A DNA stretch of 64,000 nt, from positions 23,477-87,476 of IMG/VR virus record IMGVR_UViG_3300046528_000200. The stretch is one strand, 5' to 3'. Below the pieces are notes generated by a model, which was not told the DNA's origin, did not search any database, and worked only from the letters and a program-made list of their open reading frames with translations. Origin of the DNA: a virus. Its lineage: Duplodnaviria; Caudoviricetes. Shown here piece by piece: positions 22,815-51,996 of the stretch (its first letter is position 1; each line of letters begins with the position of its first letter). Position numbers and translations under genes: made by a program.

Positions 22815-24176
22815 ATGCCCAACCTCCGCGTCATCTCCGACAACGCGATCGAACGCGCGACCCTGACCGCCTCGACCACGGCAAGTAATTTTGCCCTTTC
22901 GAATCTCGTCTCAGGCCGGAAGTCGGACGTATGGCGCAGCACGGCCACCAGTGCGCGTCTGGGCGCGACGTGGGCGGCAGCCGAGGCGGTCCAGGGTGTG
23001 GCTCTACCGTTCTGCAATCTCTCCCCGACGGCGACTGTGCGCGTGCGCGCCACCAGCGAGCCGGCCGTCACAAACCTGTTCACCTACAGTGAGCAGATGG
23101 ACAACGCAGCGTGGACCAAGACTCGATCGACCGTCCCTGCGACCAACAGCACCGCGCCGGATGGCACCACTACGGCAGACACCCTGCAAGGTGATGGGAC
23201 CGGCTCTTCTTACGCCTACCAGTCGAAGACACTGTCGTCGGCTGGCACCTACCCTGTCTCGGTGTTCGTGAAGGCCGGCACCTATGCCGGCAGCTTCTCA
23301 ATCCGCGATCTGACTGATGGCGGCATTGTTTCCGTCGACCTGACGACCCTTGCAGTGTCCGCCAGCGGCAACTTCTCATCGCCCAAGTTGACCGCGCTCG
23401 CGAACGGCTGGTACCGGCTATCCGCCACGATCACTCCGCTCACGACCGGCAGCAAGGACATCAGCATCTTCAACGCCAACACGACTGGCAACGTGCTCGT
23501 TTGGGGCGTCATGCTGGGATCGGGCTCCGGTGCGCTGACCTCCTACTACCCGTCTGTCGCGTCGCCGGGCGTCCGGCCGCTCGGCTACATTGACAGCTGG
23601 CAGAGCTACAGCTACGACAGTGGCAACGTGCTGGCCTGCCCGGTACCGGCCGTCACCCTGCGCGGCTTCACGGCGGCGCAGGCGGCGAGCGCCTATGCGT
23701 TCGGCGGCGGCGCCACCGCGCGCCACTGGATGCCGGCGGCCATACAGGCCTACGGCCTGGCCGTCGACATCGTGGACACTGGCAATCTGCAGGGCTACAT
23801 CGAGGCCGCTTTCCTGCTGGCCGGCCCCTACTGGGAAGCAGCGACCAACTTCGATTACGGCGCCAGCGCCCAGCTGATCGATTCGACCAAGAGCGAGCGC
23901 AGCGACGCCGGTGACCTGGTCAGCGACGCCGGCACGATCAGCAAGAAGCTCAGCCTGCCCTTCTCCAAGTTGTCGCCGACGGACCGCGCAACCTTGTGGA
24001 GCATCCTGCGTGCGAACGGTAGCCGCTATCCGGTGTTCGTCAGCATGTTCCCAGGCAGCAGCGACCTTGCGCTCGAGCGTGACCACCAGGTCTACGGCAA
24101 GCTGGTGCAGCTGCCGGCGATGAGTCTGCCTTTCTTCAACCTTGCGTCTGCTACGGTCGAAATCGAATCGATCTAG
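22815..24176 (+). CDS. Distal-tail (Dit)-like minor tail protein with inserted carbohydrate-binding-like domain
   Basis: N- and C-terminal halves look like a minor tail protein. The insert is TNLFTYSEQ...APDGTTTADTL...NGWYRLS...WGVML...TSYYP. Confidence 0.6.
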   Translation: MPNLRVISDNAIERATLTASTTASNFALSNLVSGRKSDVWRSTATSARLGATWAAAEAVQGVALPFCNLSPTATVRVRATSEPAVTNLFTYSEQMDNAAWTKTRSTVPATNSTAPDGTTTADTLQGDGTGSSYAYQSKTLSSAGTYPVSVFVKAGTYAGSFSIRDLTDGGIVSVDLTTLAVSASGNFSSPKLTALANGWYRLSATITPLTTGSKDISIFNANTTGNVLVWGVMLGSGSGALTSYYPSVASPGVRPLGYIDSWQSYSYDSGNVLACPVPAVTLRGFTAAQAASAYAFGGGATARHWMPAAIQAYGLAVDIVDTGNLQGYIEAAFLLAGPYWEAATNFDYGASAQLIDSTKSERSDAGDLVSDAGTISKKLSLPFSKLSPTDRATLWSILRANGSRYPVFVSMFPGSSDLALERDHQVYGKLVQLPAMSLPFFNLASATVEIESI

Positions 24177-27974: not shown

Positions 27975-30167
27975 TTAAACGGTGATGATGCGGTCAGCGA
28001 CCGAATCGGTCAGGTCGCTGTGTGAAACGATAATCGTCTGGCCGAAGCCCAACGTCGACAGCATGCCAAGCATCTTGGTCTCGCGCGCGTCGCTGCAGGC
28101 TGCGGCCGGCTCATCCAGCTGGAGCATGTCGATGCCCGGCAGGAAGGTCTTAGTGAGCGTGATGCGCATCGCCAGGCCCAGCATGTCTTCGGCCGAGCCG
28201 GACAGACCCGAGACCGGGAAGCCATTGCATTTGAAGGTGCCGTCGGCGCGGGTGATACGCGACTCCTGCCCGCGCACATCCGAGAAGTGCTTCGAGACGC
28301 CGCCCAGCACGATGTTCCACAGCTTGTTCGTGATGACCGGGCGCGCAGCGCGCACCTTTTTAATGAGCAGGTTGTACTTTTGCATCTGGGCCAGCTCAGC
28401 CTCGACGGCGGCCAGTTGGGCGCGCGTCTGCTCCAGCTGACGCTGCTGCTGCGCGGCCAGCGCTTCTTTAGTGGCGAGGGCGGTCTGCAACTGCTGCAGA
28501 TGGTGCTGGTGCAGTTGCAGCGCTCCGGACGAAGTCTTAATCTGCTGGACCAGCTGGCCCGCGCGCTCCAGCACCGACTTGGCTTCCTGCACTTCCAGCA
28601 CCTGGCGCGCGGTCACCGCGTCGCGACGCTCCAGCACCAGGCGGTTGCGCTGAGTTTCCTTTTCCTGCCGGCGCACGGCGTCCGCATCGGCTTCGCGTTG
28701 CAGCGTCTCGAGGTGAGCAAGCTGGTTGGCCAAGTCGGCCGGCACGTGTTCCAGTACCGGGCCGGTCCAGCGCCACGCACCCGGCACCACGTTGCGGTCG
28801 ACCACGATGAAGTCGGCAGCGCGCGCGTACAGGTTTTCGATGGCGCCATTGACGCGCACGACGTCGTTCAGCTGCGCGAGGTACTTGAGCTGCTGCTCCA
28901 GCTCCGTGCTTGCCTCATCACTGGCCTGGCGGTATTCCCGCTCATCCAGACCAATCTCGTCCAGCGCAGCCTGCAATGCCTGCTTACGGTCTGCAATCTG
29001 GCGCCCCAGCTGGCCGTTGGTGCGCGCCACCTCCGGCACGTCCGACAGGTCTTTCTGGCACAGTGCACAGGTGGTCTCCCTGATCAGTCGCCCTTCGAGT
29101 TGCGCCACTTCAACGTCAGCTGCTCGCTGGCGCTCAGCACGTTCCTGCGCCAATTTGTTTAGGTTGACCACTGCGCTATTGCGACGGTCACCTAGAGGCT
29201 TGATTGACTGCTGCACCTGAGCGACTTCAGCTTCCAGCGACGCCAGATCCTTGTCCCACTGGACCGCGGTGTCGGTGCCAGCCAGCTCGGCATACAGTTT
29301 CGCCGCGCGCGCCTGCTGCTTGCCGGCTTCCACTGCCGCGCGCGCCTTTTCGATGCTGCCTTCCGGCGGCGCCAGCACGGCGGGCCGGCCCAGCTCACGG
29401 TCGATCGCGTCGATGTCGAAGGTGGTCTTCTCGATCGTGCGCGTCAGCGCCACTTCGCTGGCGATGGTCTGGCGCGCGGTCTCGACGTCGAGCTGGTCCT
29501 GCTGCGCCTGCAGATCAGCCAGATCGCCTTCCGCGGCGCGAACCGTTTCAGCAGCGTCTCCGATGTCGCCGCGCAGGCCTTCCAGATCTTCGAATGTCTG
29601 GCCCTGCACCTCCTGCTCTTTCAGCTGGGCGATGCGCGCCTCGACGCCCTCGGTCCTGCCGGTCGGGCGCTGCGCAGCGATCTTCTCGGCCACCTGGTCG
29701 ATCAGGTCGAAGTTGGCCAGCTCCTCGATCATGCGGCCGGCGGCCGTGGGGCCTTCCTTGAGCGACTCAGCCAAGGATTTCTGCGAGGCGAACATCAGCT
29801 TGCCGGCCAGCTTGGCGTCGGCGCCGAACAGGCGCTCGAAGAAAGCGGTCACTTCGTTCTGGCCGGTGATCTTTTCGCGGCCGAAATTCAGCTCGGCGCC
29901 GGACTTGCCGCGGTAGCCGGTATAGGTGACGCCGAGGTGCTCGATCTCGCAGTCGACGCGCAGCTTCGAAACTGGCGTGTGATAGGTGACGACGTCGTCG
30001 ATGGATTCGCGCAGGGAGCGCGCGCCGAAGCAGAAGTAGAAGAAGGCTTCCAGCACGGTGGTCTTGCCGGCCTCGTTCTCGCCGCGAATGGCGTTCAAGC
30101 CCGGGCCGAAGTCGAAGGCACGGTCGAGGTGCTGGCGGAAATTCTGGAGTCGGATCTTTTTGAGCAT
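27975..30167 (-). CDS. sbcC: SbcC/Rad50-like SMC ATPase
   Basis: Walker A GENEAGKT, coiled coils, CALC zinc hook, LSGS signature, LQLDEP Walker B. Confidence 0.92.
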   Translation of the reverse strand: MLKKIRLQNFRQHLDRAFDFGPGLNAIRGENEAGKTTVLEAFFYFCFGARSLRESIDDVVTYHTPVSKLRVDCEIEHLGVTYTGYRGKSGAELNFGREKITGQNEVTAFFERLFGADAKLAGKLMFASQKSLAESLKEGPTAAGRMIEELANFDLIDQVAEKIAAQRPTGRTEGVEARIAQLKEQEVQGQTFEDLEGLRGDIGDAAETVRAAEGDLADLQAQQDQLDVETARQTIASEVALTRTIEKTTFDIDAIDRELGRPAVLAPPEGSIEKARAAVEAGKQQARAAKLYAELAGTDTAVQWDKDLASLEAEVAQVQQSIKPLGDRRNSAVVNLNKLAQERAERQRAADVEVAQLEGRLIRETTCALCQKDLSDVPEVARTNGQLGRQIADRKQALQAALDEIGLDEREYRQASDEASTELEQQLKYLAQLNDVVRVNGAIENLYARAADFIVVDRNVVPGAWRWTGPVLEHVPADLANQLAHLETLQREADADAVRRQEKETQRNRLVLERRDAVTARQVLEVQEAKSVLERAGQLVQQIKTSSGALQLHQHHLQQLQTALATKEALAAQQQRQLEQTRAQLAAVEAELAQMQKYNLLIKKVRAARPVITNKLWNIVLGGVSKHFSDVRGQESRITRADGTFKCNGFPVSGLSGSAEDMLGLAMRITLTKTFLPGIDMLQLDEPAAACSDARETKMLGMLSTLGFGQTIIVSHSDLTDSVADRIITV

Positions 30168-47420: not shown

Positions 47421-48863
47421 CTACAGGCAAAGCAAATCTTTGATGCCCTGTTTCGATCCTGACGCACGGTTGACCAGGTCGTCGTTGCTCATCAAACTCT
47501 TGAGCAGCCGCTCCTGGATCGTGCCGCGCGCGATGAAGAGCCGGTTGTTGGGCGGGTAGCGCTGGCCCTTCCTGTCGATCCGGCCGGTCGACTGGATGAA
47601 CGGGATCGTGGTGGTCGGGATCTGCACGAAGCCGGCCTCCCAGCACATGTACTGCGGGTTCAGGCCGGCGCCGGCGCTGCCCGGCTGCGCTGTCAGGTTG
47701 ACCGTGTTCGGGTCATCCATGAATTCCCTGATCGAGCGCTTCGAGTCGACTTCGGAAAAGGCCATCACGCCGCGCTTGCCGATCTCGGCAAGCCGCTTGT
47801 CCATGTGCCCGCCGATCAGCCGCGAGACGCTGCGGTGCGACGTCCAGAGGATCAGCTTGCTGGCCGGGCGCGCCACGCCGTCGACCATGATCTCGCCGCC
47901 AAGGTTGATCTCGTCGGCCACCTCGTCGATCAGGTCGAAGATCGCCGAGCGCTTCGTCTCGTCGCCGGCGAAGTAGCCGAAGTCGATCACCACCTGCTGG
48001 GCGGCGTGGTACAGCTTCGTCGCCGTGGTGGCGTCGATCTTGCCTCCGTCGTCCAGCAGCAACAGCTGCTCCTCCATCAGGCGCCGGTACAGCGCCATAT
48101 GCTCCTTCGAGAGGTCGTAGTAGATCGGGATGATGCGCCCCTTGGGCAGGGCCGAATGCACCTCCTCCTTGGTGCGATGGATGCGCCGCATGTTGAGGTT
48201 CGTCTGCAGCAAGTCGAGGTTGTGCCACTTCGTCGGCTGCTTGAAGATGTCGCGCTCTTCGACGTGGATGTTCTCGAACTGGGTGTAGGTCGCGTACACG
48301 TCCGGCGTATTGAGCTTGATGTAGGCGTAGTGGTCGCCCACCTTGCTGGCGATCGTGCCCGACATCAGGATCAGGTCACGCGCGGTGGCGATGCGCCGCA
48401 CGTTCTTGAACAGCACGCCGCGGCCCTTCAGGTTCTGGCACTCGTCGACCACCGTCAGCACGTCGAAACGGGCCAGCTCCTTGCTGAGCCGCTCGATGTC
48501 GTTGTTGAAGATCTGATAGCTGGTCACCAGCCAGCGCGCGCCAGCCAGCTGCAGCTCGCGCCGCTTGGCCGGCCCGCCAGTGTAGTCGACCACGCGCCCG
48601 GCGCCCGGGATGCTGTTTAGCCAGGCGACCCACTGGGCGACTAGGATCGGCGGCATCAGGACCACCGTGACGTCCGGCTGCAGCGCCAGGGCGATACAGG
48701 TGGCGATCACCGTCTTGCCGTAGCCGACCGGCAGATCCAGCAGCGCGCGGCGCCACATGACCGCCTTGACGATGTCTTCCATCTGCATCTGCTCGAGCGT
48801 CATCACGCCACCCAGCGGGTGGGGCAGCGGATAACGCTCGATGACTTGTTCAAGTGTCAGCAT
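47421..48863 (-). CDS. SF2 (SNF2-like) helicase
   Basis: Start ATG 48863 (SD AAAGGAGG); LPVGYGKT, VVDECQ, SGT and QSTGRIDRKGQ motifs. Confidence 0.88.
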   Translation of the reverse strand: MLTLEQVIERYPLPHPLGGVMTLEQMQMEDIVKAVMWRRALLDLPVGYGKTVIATCIALALQPDVTVVLMPPILVAQWVAWLNSIPGAGRVVDYTGGPAKRRELQLAGARWLVTSYQIFNNDIERLSKELARFDVLTVVDECQNLKGRGVLFKNVRRIATARDLILMSGTIASKVGDHYAYIKLNTPDVYATYTQFENIHVEERDIFKQPTKWHNLDLLQTNLNMRRIHRTKEEVHSALPKGRIIPIYYDLSKEHMALYRRLMEEQLLLLDDGGKIDATTATKLYHAAQQVVIDFGYFAGDETKRSAIFDLIDEVADEINLGGEIMVDGVARPASKLILWTSHRSVSRLIGGHMDKRLAEIGKRGVMAFSEVDSKRSIREFMDDPNTVNLTAQPGSAGAGLNPQYMCWEAGFVQIPTTTIPFIQSTGRIDRKGQRYPPNNRLFIARGTIQERLLKSLMSNDDLVNRASGSKQGIKDLLCL

Positions 48864-49287
48864 GCGCAAGCCTCCTTTCGGCAAGCATCTTCAGTAGCGG
48901 GTAGGCGCTCTCGGCGCCCAGACCTGACGAGGCCGTCGCCGGCAGCCGCGCCGCGAATTCCCGCAGCGTCAGCACGCTGGCCAGATCCAGCAGCGGCTCG
49001 CCGTCAAGTTGTGCACTGTGCCCGATCAGCAGCAGCAGCATGTAGAGGCCGTTGCGGTTGACGTCGTAGCACTGCGGCGAGCTGCCCATGTCGAGCGACA
49101 GCCACAGCAGATTGGCCAGCCCCGGATTGGAGTAAGTCAGAGGCGCGAAGCCCTGCGGCCGGCCGTCGGGCCCGGCCCAGAACCATTCCAGCGGCCGGGC
49201 CATCCAGTGCGGGTCCGACAGGCGCTTATACAGCGTCCGGACCCGCGTCAGATCCTTGTCCGGGTAGCCCATAAAGAGCTCCATCAC
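48850..49287 (-). CDS. Hypothetical protein
   Basis: 145 aa; coupled to neighbouring genes. Confidence 0.6.
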   Translation of the reverse strand: MMELFMGYPDKDLTRVRTLYKRLSDPHWMARPLEWFWAGPDGRPQGFAPLTYSNPGLANLLWLSLDMGSSPQCYDVNRNGLYMLLLLIGHSAQLDGEPLLDLASVLTLREFAARLPATASSGLGAESAYPLLKMLAERRLAHADT

Positions 49288-49490
49288 GTCAGCTCGAGCT
49301 TGCGCTCGAGATCGATGTCACGCGCCGGCACTGGGTGCCAGGCGATGTAGCGGGCGTTGCTGCCGATCGTCGGGCCTTTCCATGGGCCGACGTCGATCGA
49401 GCCGTCGCGCTCGAGCAGGATGACGCGCTGGTTCAGCGGTGCCGGCTTGATGTATTCGAAAGGCAGATCGTCCTTGGTGCAATTTTTCAT
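49284..49490 (-). CDS. Hypothetical protein
   Basis: ATG 49490 with ATGA overlap; 68 aa. Confidence 0.6.
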   Translation of the reverse strand: MKNCTKDDLPFEYIKPAPLNQRVILLERDGSIDVGPWKGPTIGSNARYIAWHPVPARDIDLERKLELT

Positions 49491-49822
49491 ACTTTCTCCG
49501 GTGGTGCGCCGATGGTCAGCGCTTTGATTCCCGCCTGGCCGAACAGGACTTCCTGGCAGTTGCGGCAGGCGTGGGTGTGGTTTTCGACGTAGGCGTGGCT
49601 GCCCTTCGCAGCGTCGCCGGCCAGCATCACTGCAACCTCCTCGGCATGTCCGATCTGGTTGCAGATGGTCTGACACTTCTCGTAGCCTTCGTCGCCCTGG
49701 CGCGGGCAGGCAGGCTGCGGGGTGGCGCACCAGTTCTCACCGACGAAGCGACTGCCCTCCGGCGTGACGATGGTGCAGCGCACGACGCGCCGGGCGCAGG
49801 GGCCTAGGATTCCGGCGCTCAT
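49487..49822 (-). CDS. Zn-dependent (deoxy)cytidylate deaminase-like protein
   Basis: GHAEE and ACRNC zinc motifs, plus extra Cys residues. Confidence 0.75.
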   Translation of the reverse strand: MSAGILGPCARRVVRCTIVTPEGSRFVGENWCATPQPACPRQGDEGYEKCQTICNQIGHAEEVAVMLAGDAAKGSHAYVENHTHACRNCQEVLFGQAGIKALTIGAPPEKV

Positions 49823-50505
49823 TCAGGAGCTCCCTTGAATGGCTGCAATACTCTCTTCGATGAAGACCCTTGCAAGTTCTGCCGTGATCGCATCACCCGC
49901 AGCATGCAGGAATGGAACGATGCTGGAATCGACATAAGCCAGAGGGCTAATTCCGGGTTTAATCGGACGTTGCTTTCCGTCTCGGCAGTCACGCCATTCG
50001 GCGTCGGCCCAGAAACCATTAACGCGGCCTGGCGCGGCAGCTGGTCGAGCCTGCTGCGCCCGTCGGGCCGCGTGGTAGCCATCCCAGGCGTGTCCTTCCA
50101 GTCGCGCGCCGTTGGCGTGACCCACGAACCAGAGCCTGTCCCGCATGTGCGGGGCACCGACGCTGCAAGCCGGGAGACCAGCCGCTGCGAAGGCGTAGCC
50201 TTCTCTTTCCAGCTCAACTTGTACAAGGTCGAGCCAGCCGAAGCCAATCGCTCTCTGAGATTGCTCACCAAAGACTGCGTCAGGCCGGCACTCCGCAATG
50301 AGGCGCCGCCACTCAGGCCAGAGATGGCGATCGTCGGCGAATCCTTGCTGGAGTCCGATCTCGGAAAACGGCTGGCAGGGCGGACTCCCGGTCCAGATCC
50401 GGGCACTGTCTGGGACATTGGCAAGTCGTAGGGCGTACTGCCAGATTCCGAGCCCGCTGAAGAAATGGCACTGGGTGAATCCAGCGAGGTCGCTTCCTGT
50501 GACAT
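49819..50505 (-). CDS. Putative methyltransferase beta subunit nested in the +1 frame
   Basis: 228-codon ORF with SD AAAGGAG 8 nt before ATG 50505. It carries WVTPTARDWK and RLNPELALWLMSIP (motif IX-like), and its stop overlaps the next ATG (ATGA). Confidence 0.7.
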   Translation of the reverse strand: MSQEATSLDSPSAISSAGSESGSTPYDLPMSQTVPGSGPGVRPASRFPRSDSSKDSPTIAISGLSGGASLRSAGLTQSLVSNLRERLASAGSTLYKLSWKEKATPSQRLVSRLAASVPRTCGTGSGSWVTPTARDWKDTPGMATTRPDGRSRLDQLPRQAALMVSGPTPNGVTAETESNVRLNPELALWLMSIPASFHSCMLRVMRSRQNLQGSSSKRVLQPFKGAPE

Positions 50506-50617
50506 CTTTGATGCTCCTTTCGTCTACTTCCCCCGGAGCGATCAGACCTTCGCGGATGAACTCGCGAAGGAAAGCCGCCTTGTCGGGATCAAACTCGTTG
50601 TAATAGACCTTCACCAT
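49823..50617 (-). CDS. C5 cytosine DNA methyltransferase, alpha subunit (motifs I, IV, VI, VIII, X; no recognisable IX)
   Basis: FFSGLG, PPCQPFS, GEQS, MRDRLWFVG and AGDAI motifs. Confidence 0.9.
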   Translation of the reverse strand: MVKVYYNEFDPDKAAFLREFIREGLIAPGEVDERSIKDVTGSDLAGFTQCHFFSGLGIWQYALRLANVPDSARIWTGSPPCQPFSEIGLQQGFADDRHLWPEWRRLIAECRPDAVFGEQSQRAIGFGWLDLVQVELEREGYAFAAAGLPACSVGAPHMRDRLWFVGHANGARLEGHAWDGYHAARRAQQARPAAAPGRVNGFWADAEWRDCRDGKQRPIKPGISPLAYVDSSIVPFLHAAGDAITAELARVFIEESIAAIQGSS

Positions 50618-51042
50618 TTGACCGGCCTCCGGCCGAGGGAGGGTACGTACTGGTTGCCACCAAAGCCGTGGCGTGCAGCATGCTCAGCTGAAGCCATCAG
50701 CTCGAAATTCGAGATGTCGTTATTCGACTTGTCCTCGTCGAGATGGTGGACCTCAAAGCCTTCAGGGATCGGGCCGCTGTAAAACTCCCAGACATCTTGA
50801 TGCAGATACCTGCGATTGCCGGTCGTCCGACCGTAGTAGCCGCACGGCCGTAGGGTGTACTTCGCGCCGCGCCAGTACACGTACGGCGCTGGATCCCGGT
50901 GCCTCATCTCTACTCCGCGGCGCCCGAGAATCTTCCACATCGTCTGCCGGGTAACGCCGCAGGCCGCAGCCACTGCCTCGATGGACTCGCCGCGGGCATA
51001 CTGCGCCACAGCGTGGTCGTAATTCTTTCGGTGCGCCGGCAC
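50611..51042 (-). CDS. HNH endonuclease with N-terminal HTH
   Basis: YLHQDVW...VHHLDEDKSNNDISNFELM..AEH (HNH_3-like). Confidence 0.85.
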   Translation of the reverse strand: MPAHRKNYDHAVAQYARGESIEAVAAACGVTRQTMWKILGRRGVEMRHRDPAPYVYWRGAKYTLRPCGYYGRTTGNRRYLHQDVWEFYSGPIPEGFEVHHLDEDKSNNDISNFELMASAEHAARHGFGGNQYVPSLGRRPVKW

Positions 51043-51899
51043 TATGCCTCCCGCACCAGGCGATCGAACAGGATGCCGAGCTCGCGCGTCATCAGCGCGA
51101 TGTCGGCGTCGAAGCGGTCGACATCCTTCTCGGCGCCGCGCCCTTCCTGCATGATGTCCAGCGGCTTGATCTTGCGGATCTGGCTGTTCTGGGTCATGAC
51201 GAACGAGAGGCGCGAAGCGAAGGTCATGGCCACGGCCTCGATCACGGCGCCGGCCTTGAGGTGGTGCTGAACGTCCTCATCCCGCAGCAGTGCACGCTCG
51301 AACTTCACCACCTTGCTATTCGGGTAGCGCAGCGCCGCATCAGCGTCGACGCTGAACTCGTGCGGCGGCTCATCGCTGACCCATTCGGTCAGCAGCGCGG
51401 CGCGCGGCCAGCTGACGTCGCACAGGCCCAAGTCGTTCCGGCCGTCCTGCACGTATTTCAGCAGCACCTTGACGATGTCGCCGCAGACGCTGTCGGATGT
51501 CGAATCGATCACAATGCGGTGCTGGTCCTGGTCGATCCAGACCAGCGTGGTGCGGGTGGTGGTCAGGGCGCGCGGCAGCAGCTCGCCGAGAGCGCGCTCC
51601 TTGAGCTCCTTGCGCGCCTTTTTACCCGGCAAGAAGCCCTGCTGCTCTTCCAGCTCCTTGCAGCGGGCTTCGACCACCGCGGCCACGGCCGACGCCGGGA
51701 TCACCTTCTTCTCGACCTTGAAGCGCAGCAGGATGTGCTTGCCCTGGCGGTAGGCCAGCTCGTCGCCGCGCACCGGCACGAAGCCCTTGGACTCCAGCTC
51801 GTGGGTACCGACAGGAACGAAAAGAGCAGCTTGGAGCTGCTCGGTGGGGAATTGCGCTTTCGGCGAGATGCCGTAGATGGTTGCGTTTTTGGGCCACAT
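51042..51899 (-). CDS. rdgC: Recombination-associated protein RdgC
   Basis: Start ATG 51899 (MWPKNATIY); ESKGFVP, EKKVIPASAV, ELLPRA and RFDADIALM motifs. Confidence 0.88.
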   Translation of the reverse strand: MWPKNATIYGISPKAQFPTEQLQAALFVPVGTHELESKGFVPVRGDELAYRQGKHILLRFKVEKKVIPASAVAAVVEARCKELEEQQGFLPGKKARKELKERALGELLPRALTTTRTTLVWIDQDQHRIVIDSTSDSVCGDIVKVLLKYVQDGRNDLGLCDVSWPRAALLTEWVSDEPPHEFSVDADAALRYPNSKVVKFERALLRDEDVQHHLKAGAVIEAVAMTFASRLSFVMTQNSQIRKIKPLDIMQEGRGAEKDVDRFDADIALMTRELGILFDRLVREA

Positions 51900-51932
51900 A
51901 GTGATGGAATTTTCTCTTGGGAAGGGATTATT

Positions 51933-51961
51933 AGGGTAAGCAAACTTCTGAGTTGTGTCAA
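51933..51961 (-). promoter_or_regulatory. Leftward promoter of divergent pair
   Basis: Minus strand TTGACA-caactcagAAGTTTGCt-TACCCT; the spacer resembles the 43905-43933 promoter. Confidence 0.55.
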
Positions 51962-51996
51962 AACAATTTTCCTGAATCAATACCTCCTGTCGTTAC

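Follow-up and report, generated by a model that had tools for sequence, protein, structure and literature searches.

Organization of the locus

The stretch of DNA analysed here (64,000 nucleotides, referred to as the window) covers positions 23,477 to 87,476 of the virus record IMGVR_UViG_3300046528_000200 (Duplodnaviria; Caudoviricetes), a genome that consists of one 87-kb contig (87,476 bp). On its minus strand lie two overlapping open reading frames (ORFs), named alpha and beta, which probably encode the two subunits of a C5-cytosine DNA methyltransferase. The overlap comprises 683 nt, and 683 of the 687 nt of beta are found inside alpha on the same strand, with the beta ATG about 110 nt into the alpha gene. 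An initial annotation, made from the sequence alone, had described both ORFs, the Shine-Dalgarno (SD) sequence AAAGGAG ahead of beta and a beta stop codon coupled to the next gene, and all of these were confirmed in the sequence at the positions below.

49823..50617, minus strand: alpha coding sequence, 264 aa, from ATG 50617 to the stop at 49823; C5-cytosine methyltransferase large domain
49819..50505, minus strand: beta coding sequence, 228 aa, from ATG 50505 to the stop at 49819; +1 frame of alpha
50514..50520, minus strand: SD sequence AAAGGAG for beta, formed by the alpha codons E33-R34-S35, 8 nt ahead of ATG 50505
50626..50630, minus strand: GGAGG, likely SD sequence for alpha as read from the sequence, 8 nt ahead of ATG 50617
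49819..49825, minus strand: TGAATGA junction, made up of the alpha stop codon, the ATG of the next gene and the beta stop codon, which overlaps that ATG

Conservation of the nested frame

The alpha gene has a G+C content of 61%, and synonymous shuffling of its codons left the +1 frame free of stops in 5.7% of the shuffles. The open +1 frame in the window is by itself neither decisive nor significant.

Two samples of related loci were compared. The first consists of 80 IMG/VR loci selected by similarity to alpha only (40-64% identity, G+C 49-67%), which together with the window and one E. coli phage make up 82 non-redundant loci. The +1 frame is open over 197-334 codons with homology to beta in all 82 (phmmer E 1e-13 to 1e-52). 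No stop codon was observed in this frame across the 82 loci, compared with 252 expected by synonymous shuffling, and the count for the +2 frame is 1043. The second sample consists of 80 loci in bacterial and archaeal genomes chosen solely by beta motifs, in a collection of 185,579 species genomes with 491 confirmed relatives. Each of the 80 has an alpha gene that overlaps a beta ORF in the +1 frame, and free-standing beta genes were found at none of these genome loci. The nested pair is present in 162 of 162 sampled loci and also in six further named phages.

The alpha codons beneath beta vary unevenly in their third positions, which are the second positions of the beta codons. When the 82 sequences are aligned by codon, the third-position entropy is approximately 1.5-1.8 bits at alpha codons 17-48, 0.67-0.76 bits at codons 129-144, beneath the GSTLYKLTWKE block of beta, and 0.48-0.63 bits at codons 217-232, beneath the LNPxxxRWLMGxP block. 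The window was also compared with L175, a close relative of 89% nucleotide identity that was obtained in an independent sequencing run, and alpha-synonymous change is about ten-fold lower within beta residues 96-205. The differences per 100 nt that are synonymous in alpha are as follows.

Ahead of the beta ATG: 14.3
Beta residues 1-95: 8.1
Beta residues 96-205: 1.5
Beta residues 206-228 (tail): 15.3

A conserved open +1 frame in homologues and suppressed synonymous variation had been put forward in the initial annotation as signs of a genuine second gene, and both were found, the latter beneath the beta core in the alignment as well as in the comparison with L175. In one locus (L086:2380-4080), beta has a Cys-rich insertion of approximately 190 aa (C-x-x-C ... 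C-x-x-C) upstream of its core, and alpha stays open across this insertion, giving a 566-aa protein in which the insert separates motif VI from the motif VII region. These comparisons show that both frames are under purifying selection at the protein level. The constraint is partitioned: some parts are constrained in alpha alone, others in beta alone, and two segments in both.

In locus L165 (1222-2423) alpha is broken across two frames near codon 50 and beta is open, which represents either a pseudogene or an assembly error.

Proposed start site of beta

The putative beta start lies in a near-invariant alpha sequence, VDERSIxDV, which is typically written GAn GAA AGG AGY ATC GAn GAT GTN and thereby places GGAG 7-8 nt ahead of a beta-frame ATG. 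The codon choice at this site differs from that in the rest of alpha: the Arg codon is AGG in 36% of the loci (7% elsewhere in alpha), the Ser codon is AGY in 73% (46% elsewhere) and the Asp codon is GAT, which creates the ATG, in 83% (39% elsewhere). Both GGAG and ATG are present at this site in 38 of 72 loci. In other loci the corresponding ATG stands 18 nt upstream or 12 nt downstream, in most cases accompanied by a GGAG or GAGG of its own, and an ATG preceded by an SD sequence was found near the frame opening in 62 of 80 loci.

The alpha polypeptide

Alpha matches the Pfam family PF00145 with 58.7 bits (cut-off 22), although the match is confined to residues 68-174, corresponding to motifs IV-VIII, and it matches phrog_363 with an E-value of 3.6e-64. 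The blocks recognized in alpha are II/III-like, I-like, IV, VI, VIII and X-like. This agrees with the initial annotation, which listed motifs I, IV, VI, VIII and X and found no motif IX, except that motifs I and X are here graded as motif-like. Neither motif IX nor a target recognition domain (TRD) was found in the alpha chain; both are found in the +1-frame product, beta. The main features of alpha are:

50447..50464, minus strand: motif I-like S-adenosylmethionine (SAM) loop FFSGLG, residues 52-57, sited between the III-like block and motif IV
50363..50383, minus strand: motif IV PPCQPFS, residues 79-85, with the catalytic Cys81, aligned to PCQ of M.HhaI
50135..50143, minus strand: motif VIII R-D-R, residues 159-161, with R159 and R161 invariant, aligned to the motif VIII region of M.HhaI
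50021..50122, minus strand: linker, residues 166-199, unconserved and variable in length, a read-through of the variable TRD region of beta
49886..49897, minus strand: motif X-like GDAI, residues 241-244, family consensus GNAI, canonical motif G-N-x-[VI]

In motif IV, P80, C81 and S85 are invariant among 56 sequences and Q82, P83 and F84 are nearly so. Motif VI is represented by G117-E118-Q119 (canonical E-N-V) with E118 invariant. The alpha profile aligns to motifs IV-VIII of M.HhaI, which is also the top Foldseek match of the AlphaFold2 model of alpha alone (predicted local distance difference test (pLDDT) 83, predicted template modelling score (pTM) 0.76).

The first 85 residues of alpha begin with a motif II-like YYNExD, and the N-terminal motif I (F-x-G-x-G) of the canonical enzyme is missing. 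When aligned with a single-chain enzyme by hhalign, a segment of 24 residues containing the FFSGLG loop and its flanks appears as an insertion in alpha. From this placement of motif I, the SAM-binding fold appears to be locally permuted, a feature common to the family as a whole.

The linker has an amino acid entropy of about 3.2 bits, every codon position in it has an entropy of about 1.6-1.8 bits, and its pLDDT is about 50. Its changes in length correspond to whole W-x-T-P modules gained or lost in beta. The spacer from motif VIII to motif X is mostly unconserved, though a conserved hairpin stands between these motifs.

The beta polypeptide

Beta matches phrog_1008, which is labelled 'DNA methyltransferase', with an E-value of 1.2e-17 and has more than 1000 homologues. 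A profile search puts the family at 28,991 representative clusters with a cut-off of E<=1e-3, of which 8,625 also reach E<=1e-30. Searches in Pfam (with 56 beta sequences) and NCBIfam, neither of which has a model for beta, rendered no match, nor did a search of the PDB sequences with the beta profile, even at E 10. In order along the chain, beta has a conserved helix and an S-T-L hairpin, followed by at least one W-x-T-P-x-x-D module and by the motif IX-like L-N-P-x(4)-W-L-M-G-x-P. The TRDs of C5-methyltransferases typically contain a T-L dipeptide. The second positions are free in the first approximately 90 codons, and the N-terminal third of beta is a weakly constrained read-through of the alpha motif region. 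The three blocks of the beta core are located as follows.

50203..50235, minus strand: GSTLYKLSWKE block, residues 91-101, a beta-hairpin, dual-coded with alpha residues ~129-144
50092..50124, minus strand: W-x-T-P-x-x-R-D-W-K module, residues 128-138, a TRD-like repeat unit aligned by hhalign to the TRD of the single-chain enzyme L087
49924..49962, minus strand: motif IX-like LNPELALWLMSIP, residues 182-194, dual-coded with alpha residues ~219-232

G91 and W99 in the first block are invariant, and the block has a pLDDT of 94 and lies within the predicted interface with alpha. The number of W-x-T-P modules per homologue ranges from 1 to 8 or more, and beta in the window has one. In the motif IX-like block L182, P184, W189 and L190 are invariant. 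In the C-terminal part, beta of the window departs from the consensus with G192S and W197F, reading WLMSIPxxF versus WLMGLPxEW, and the same changes are found in L175.

The beta profile aligns by hhalign with the in-frame TRD of the single-chain enzyme encoded at locus L087 (residues 218-274; probability 97%, E 3.5e-11), and the alpha profile aligns to the motif II-VIII region of the same enzyme. The initial annotation had proposed that beta supplies motif IX, citing RLNPELALWLMSIP (beta residues 181-194), and this motif IX-like block is indeed present. The proposal was too narrow in confining the contribution of beta to motif IX, as homology to a TRD is also found in beta. In M.HhaI and M.HaeIII the small domain consists of the variable region and motif IX (PMC3404938); beta is therefore the counterpart of this domain, and alpha that of the large one.

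In three prophage loci (L126, L170 and L173) the beta-frame ORF extends hundreds of codons beyond the alpha stop (497-635 aa). Such an extension suggests C-terminal fusions to beta.

Predicted complex of alpha and beta

Beta alone is poorly modelled (pLDDT 61, pTM 0.27). Modelling of the complex, which had been suggested as a check in the initial annotation, gave alpha with beta a score of 0.93, compared with 0.07 for the best of three controls. The mark applied to this score is reached by 58 of 80 solved complexes and by 2 of 110 mismatched pairs, counts that are approximate since own alignments were used. The runs share at least 78% of the contacts, and the partner pLDDT is at least 65. In the predicted interface, beta residues 68-136 and 160-223 are placed against the motif VIII strands and the C-terminal helix of alpha. 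The W-L-M of beta (residues 189-191) is modelled against alpha residues 155-157 and 245-246, with contacts spanning beta 190-192. The model supports binding between alpha and beta.

Neighbouring genes

The alpha and beta genes are flanked on the minus strand by two genes that overlap them by a few nucleotides.

50611-51042, minus strand: gene for an endonuclease with helix-turn-helix and HNH_3 domains, homing-type, immediately upstream of alpha
49487-49822, minus strand: next gene, 111 aa, starting at the ATG overlapped by the beta stop codon

The stop codon of the upstream HNH gene overlaps the alpha start (ATGGTGA), and the gene ends 7 nt within alpha. The product of the 111-aa gene has an H-A-E ... 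C-x-x-C pattern that resembles the zinc site of cytidine/dCMP deaminases. Its Pfam match to dCMP_cyt_deam_1 (E 0.011) is below the cut-off, and a PHROG search gave no match. Translational coupling of a cytosine methyltransferase to a protein of the deaminase fold may merit attention.

The genes within approximately 2 kb on each side (47421-51980) belong to replication and recombination: besides the homing-type HNH endonuclease there are an RdgC-like exonuclease and an SNF2 helicase, together with small ORFs. No restriction enzyme could be recognized among the genes in this interval, in line with the description of the methyltransferase as an orphan in the initial annotation. The nearby DNA is rich in long antisense and alternative ORFs. 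A megablast search with 12 kb around the locus gave no match among phage records, and no close named relative was found in this way.

Annotation of related loci

The assumption that standard annotation drops one of the subunits was generally found to hold in named phage records. Both ORFs are annotated in K1ind2 and K1ind3. Only alpha is annotated in EBPR podovirus 2, phiXaf18, Klebsiella phage ST13-OXA48phi12.5, BcepC6B and Edwardsiella phage PVN06. Only beta is annotated in Cylindrospermopsis phage Cr-LKS3, where g58 is called 'methyltransferase' and an alpha ORF of 304 aa is left out (L092:910-1824 and 1037-1774). The label 'DNA cytosine methyltransferase (x2)' in E. coli RefSeq was considered as a possible record of both frames but was rejected, as the two entries are two alpha pseudogene fragments. 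In a prophage of E. coli EC20 (L174:2363-3532) the Prokaryotic Genome Annotation Pipeline calls alpha as two partial pseudogene fragments, beside a frameshifted MT-A70 methyltransferase. No description of the phage nested pair as a two-subunit enzyme was found in the open-access literature searched.

Interpretation

It is highly likely that one mRNA segment gives rise to two polypeptides that make up a single orphan phage C5-cytosine DNA methyltransferase. Alpha, read in frame 0, would form the large catalytic and SAM-binding domain with the II/III-like blocks, motifs I, IV, VI and VIII, an unconstrained linker, the conserved hairpin and the motif X helix. Beta would be translated from the internal SD sequence and ATG embedded in the VDERSIxDV codons of alpha, and its core (residues ~96-205) would constitute the small domain with the S-T-L hairpin, one W-x-T-P-x-x-D module and a motif IX-like helix that packs onto the motif VIII and X region of alpha. 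The two polypeptides are predicted to bind each other, and both would be needed for methylation. The presumed role is to shield the phage DNA from host restriction. The arrangement probably originated by frame-splitting of a single-chain ancestor with the order I-VIII, TRD-IX and X, after which the TRD region would have been read in alpha as a junk linker.

Three observations weigh against this interpretation. An obvious ATG preceded by an SD sequence is lacking in 18 of the 80 loci. The high score of the predicted complex may partly reflect resemblance to solved single-chain C5 methyltransferases rather than the pair itself, because alpha and beta are the halves of a split enzyme that has solved single-chain relatives. 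Finally, the C-terminal part of alpha in the window is unusual. Within the family, conservation of G241, N242, A243 and I244 reaches at least 90%, and both the window and L175 have D242 instead of N242. It also departs from the consensus at R233I, G235P, R236F and R238H, so that alpha reads IVPFLHAAGDAI at 49886-49930 on the minus strand compared with the consensus RVGRLRAYGNAI, a change that is common to L175. Such off-consensus changes at highly conserved, dual-coded C-terminal positions make the activity of this particular copy less certain. The departure is not obvious decay, because L175 retains the same variant under strong constraint.

Other explanations for the two frames have to be weighed. 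Beta as a chance 'shadow' ORF of a G+C-rich gene would be compatible with the share of stop-free shuffles for the window taken alone and with the many long antisense and alternative ORFs nearby, but the comparative data refute it. Stops are absent where 252 were expected across the 82 loci, down to 49% G+C, beta protein homology is found at every locus and alpha-synonymous change is suppressed, which leaves this explanation with a negligible probability. Ribosomal frameshifting from frame 0 to +1 and back to 0 would instead produce one fused chain and no separate beta, and the order alpha I-VIII, beta TRD-IX and alpha X is indeed that of a canonical single-chain enzyme. However, the nucleotides for alpha 129-160 are shared with beta 97-133, and those for alpha 201-232 with beta 170-200. 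In each case both frames encode conserved residues of the interface, which one pass of a ribosome cannot supply together. Beta also has a conserved SD sequence and ATG of its own, and such frameshifting is very improbable.

If beta is a real protein, it might have a function unrelated to alpha, as an anti-defence factor or regulator overprinted on a methylase gene, and the lack of Pfam, NCBIfam and PDB sequence matches would fit with this. On the other hand, the beta core shares homology with the TRD found in a single-chain C5 methyltransferase, it includes a motif IX-like block, the predicted interface is extensive and centred on motifs VIII and X of alpha, and beta is found solely nested in alpha. 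This possibility is only slightly less improbable than frameshifting. Somewhat more room, though still little, is left for alpha being a self-sufficient methyltransferase and beta a modulator of specificity, processivity or regulation. Alpha folds confidently alone, and the conserved hairpin between motifs VIII and X could serve as a minimal recognition element. Against this, motif IX and the TRD homology are both in beta and not in alpha, beta was never lost in the 162 loci, and in M.EcoHK31I, a methyltransferase with a similar gene arrangement, alpha alone is inactive (PMC2836561).

The two-subunit methyltransferase, the preferred explanation for the locus, can be extended to the whole family, and this wider proposal is on balance plausible. 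Beta would then be the obligatory small domain (TRD and motif IX) of a very large clade of phage and prophage C5-methyltransferases with a frame-split origin. Specificity would be set by the number of W-x-T-P-x-x-D modules, which would be free to expand because they overprint the unconstrained linker of alpha. Compared with other same-strand dual-coding regions of prokaryotic viruses, the overlap would rank with the longest and the most widely conserved, and half of the enzyme would be lacking from most annotation.

The extension to a very large family would have practical consequences for annotation. If it is true, thousands of 'DNA cytosine methyltransferase' genes in phages and prophages are half-annotated, with beta given as 'hypothetical protein' or absent and alpha sometimes dropped. 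Cloning alpha alone for work on anti-restriction or specificity would probably give an inactive enzyme, and if beta holds the recognition modules the prediction of specificity must read the other frame. The locus may also be regarded as a clean natural case of two proteins sharing approximately 680 nt, and the family as a useful test set for gene finders that forbid long overlaps on the same strand.

Comparison with known systems

The nested pair annotated in K1ind2 and K1ind3, where the label 'Mte8-like protein' is used, is the same as in the window: ORF29 of K1ind3 is similar to beta (E 7e-23) and ORF30 to alpha (43% identity). In contrast to the two-subunit enzyme proposed here, these records, like phrog_1008 and phrog_363, offer annotation labels only.

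Single-chain enzymes with W-x-T-P-x-x-D modules (locus L087 / P0191, PF00145) have a motif II-VIII region that aligns with alpha, and TRD repeats and a motif IX that align with or resemble beta. In the L087 enzyme these modules are found in frame, flanked by motifs VIII and X, with W-x-T-P-[TS]-[AS]-R-D-W-K-D-T-P-G-M near-identical to W-V-T-P-T-A-R-D-W-K-D-T-P-G-M in the window, and its motif IX reads L-S-P-x-F-x-E-x-L-M-G-F-P. It differs from the nested pair in being a single chain in a single frame, with motif I at the N-terminus and not between motifs III and IV. When longer proteins were searched for fused forms, most of the matches were extended ORFs in the beta frame that lack PF00145, and one was a true single-chain enzyme.

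M.AquI (CYCGRG) occurs naturally as a heterodimer with the split in the variable region, and its small subunit contains motif IX together with a portion of the TRD (PMC3404938). Its subunits are not described as nested, and its small subunit carries motif X, which is found in alpha here.

The similarity to M.EcoHK31I pointed out in the initial annotation matches the published description of that enzyme (PMC2836561; PMC3404938). M.EcoHK31I from E. coli (YGGCCR) has a beta polypeptide encoded wholly in another frame of the alpha gene; both polypeptides are needed for activity, and the N-terminal part of beta contributes to their association (PMC2836561). As in the window, beta lies inside the alpha gene on the same strand, and motifs I-VIII and X are assigned to alpha and motif IX to beta. 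In the experiments on M.EcoHK31I, starts at internal sites were able to rescue activity. A difference, by published description only, is that the predicted TRD of M.EcoHK31I is in alpha and motif IX alone in beta (PMC3404938), whereas the TRD homology is in beta here. M.EcoHK31I is also part of a restriction-modification system, unlike the enzyme in the window, a phage orphan with no cognate endonuclease among its neighbours. M.EcoHK31I (1995) is the closest precedent, so this kind of gene arrangement is already known; what looks new from the sequence is that beta supplies the whole small domain, and that it does so in an orphan phage enzyme.

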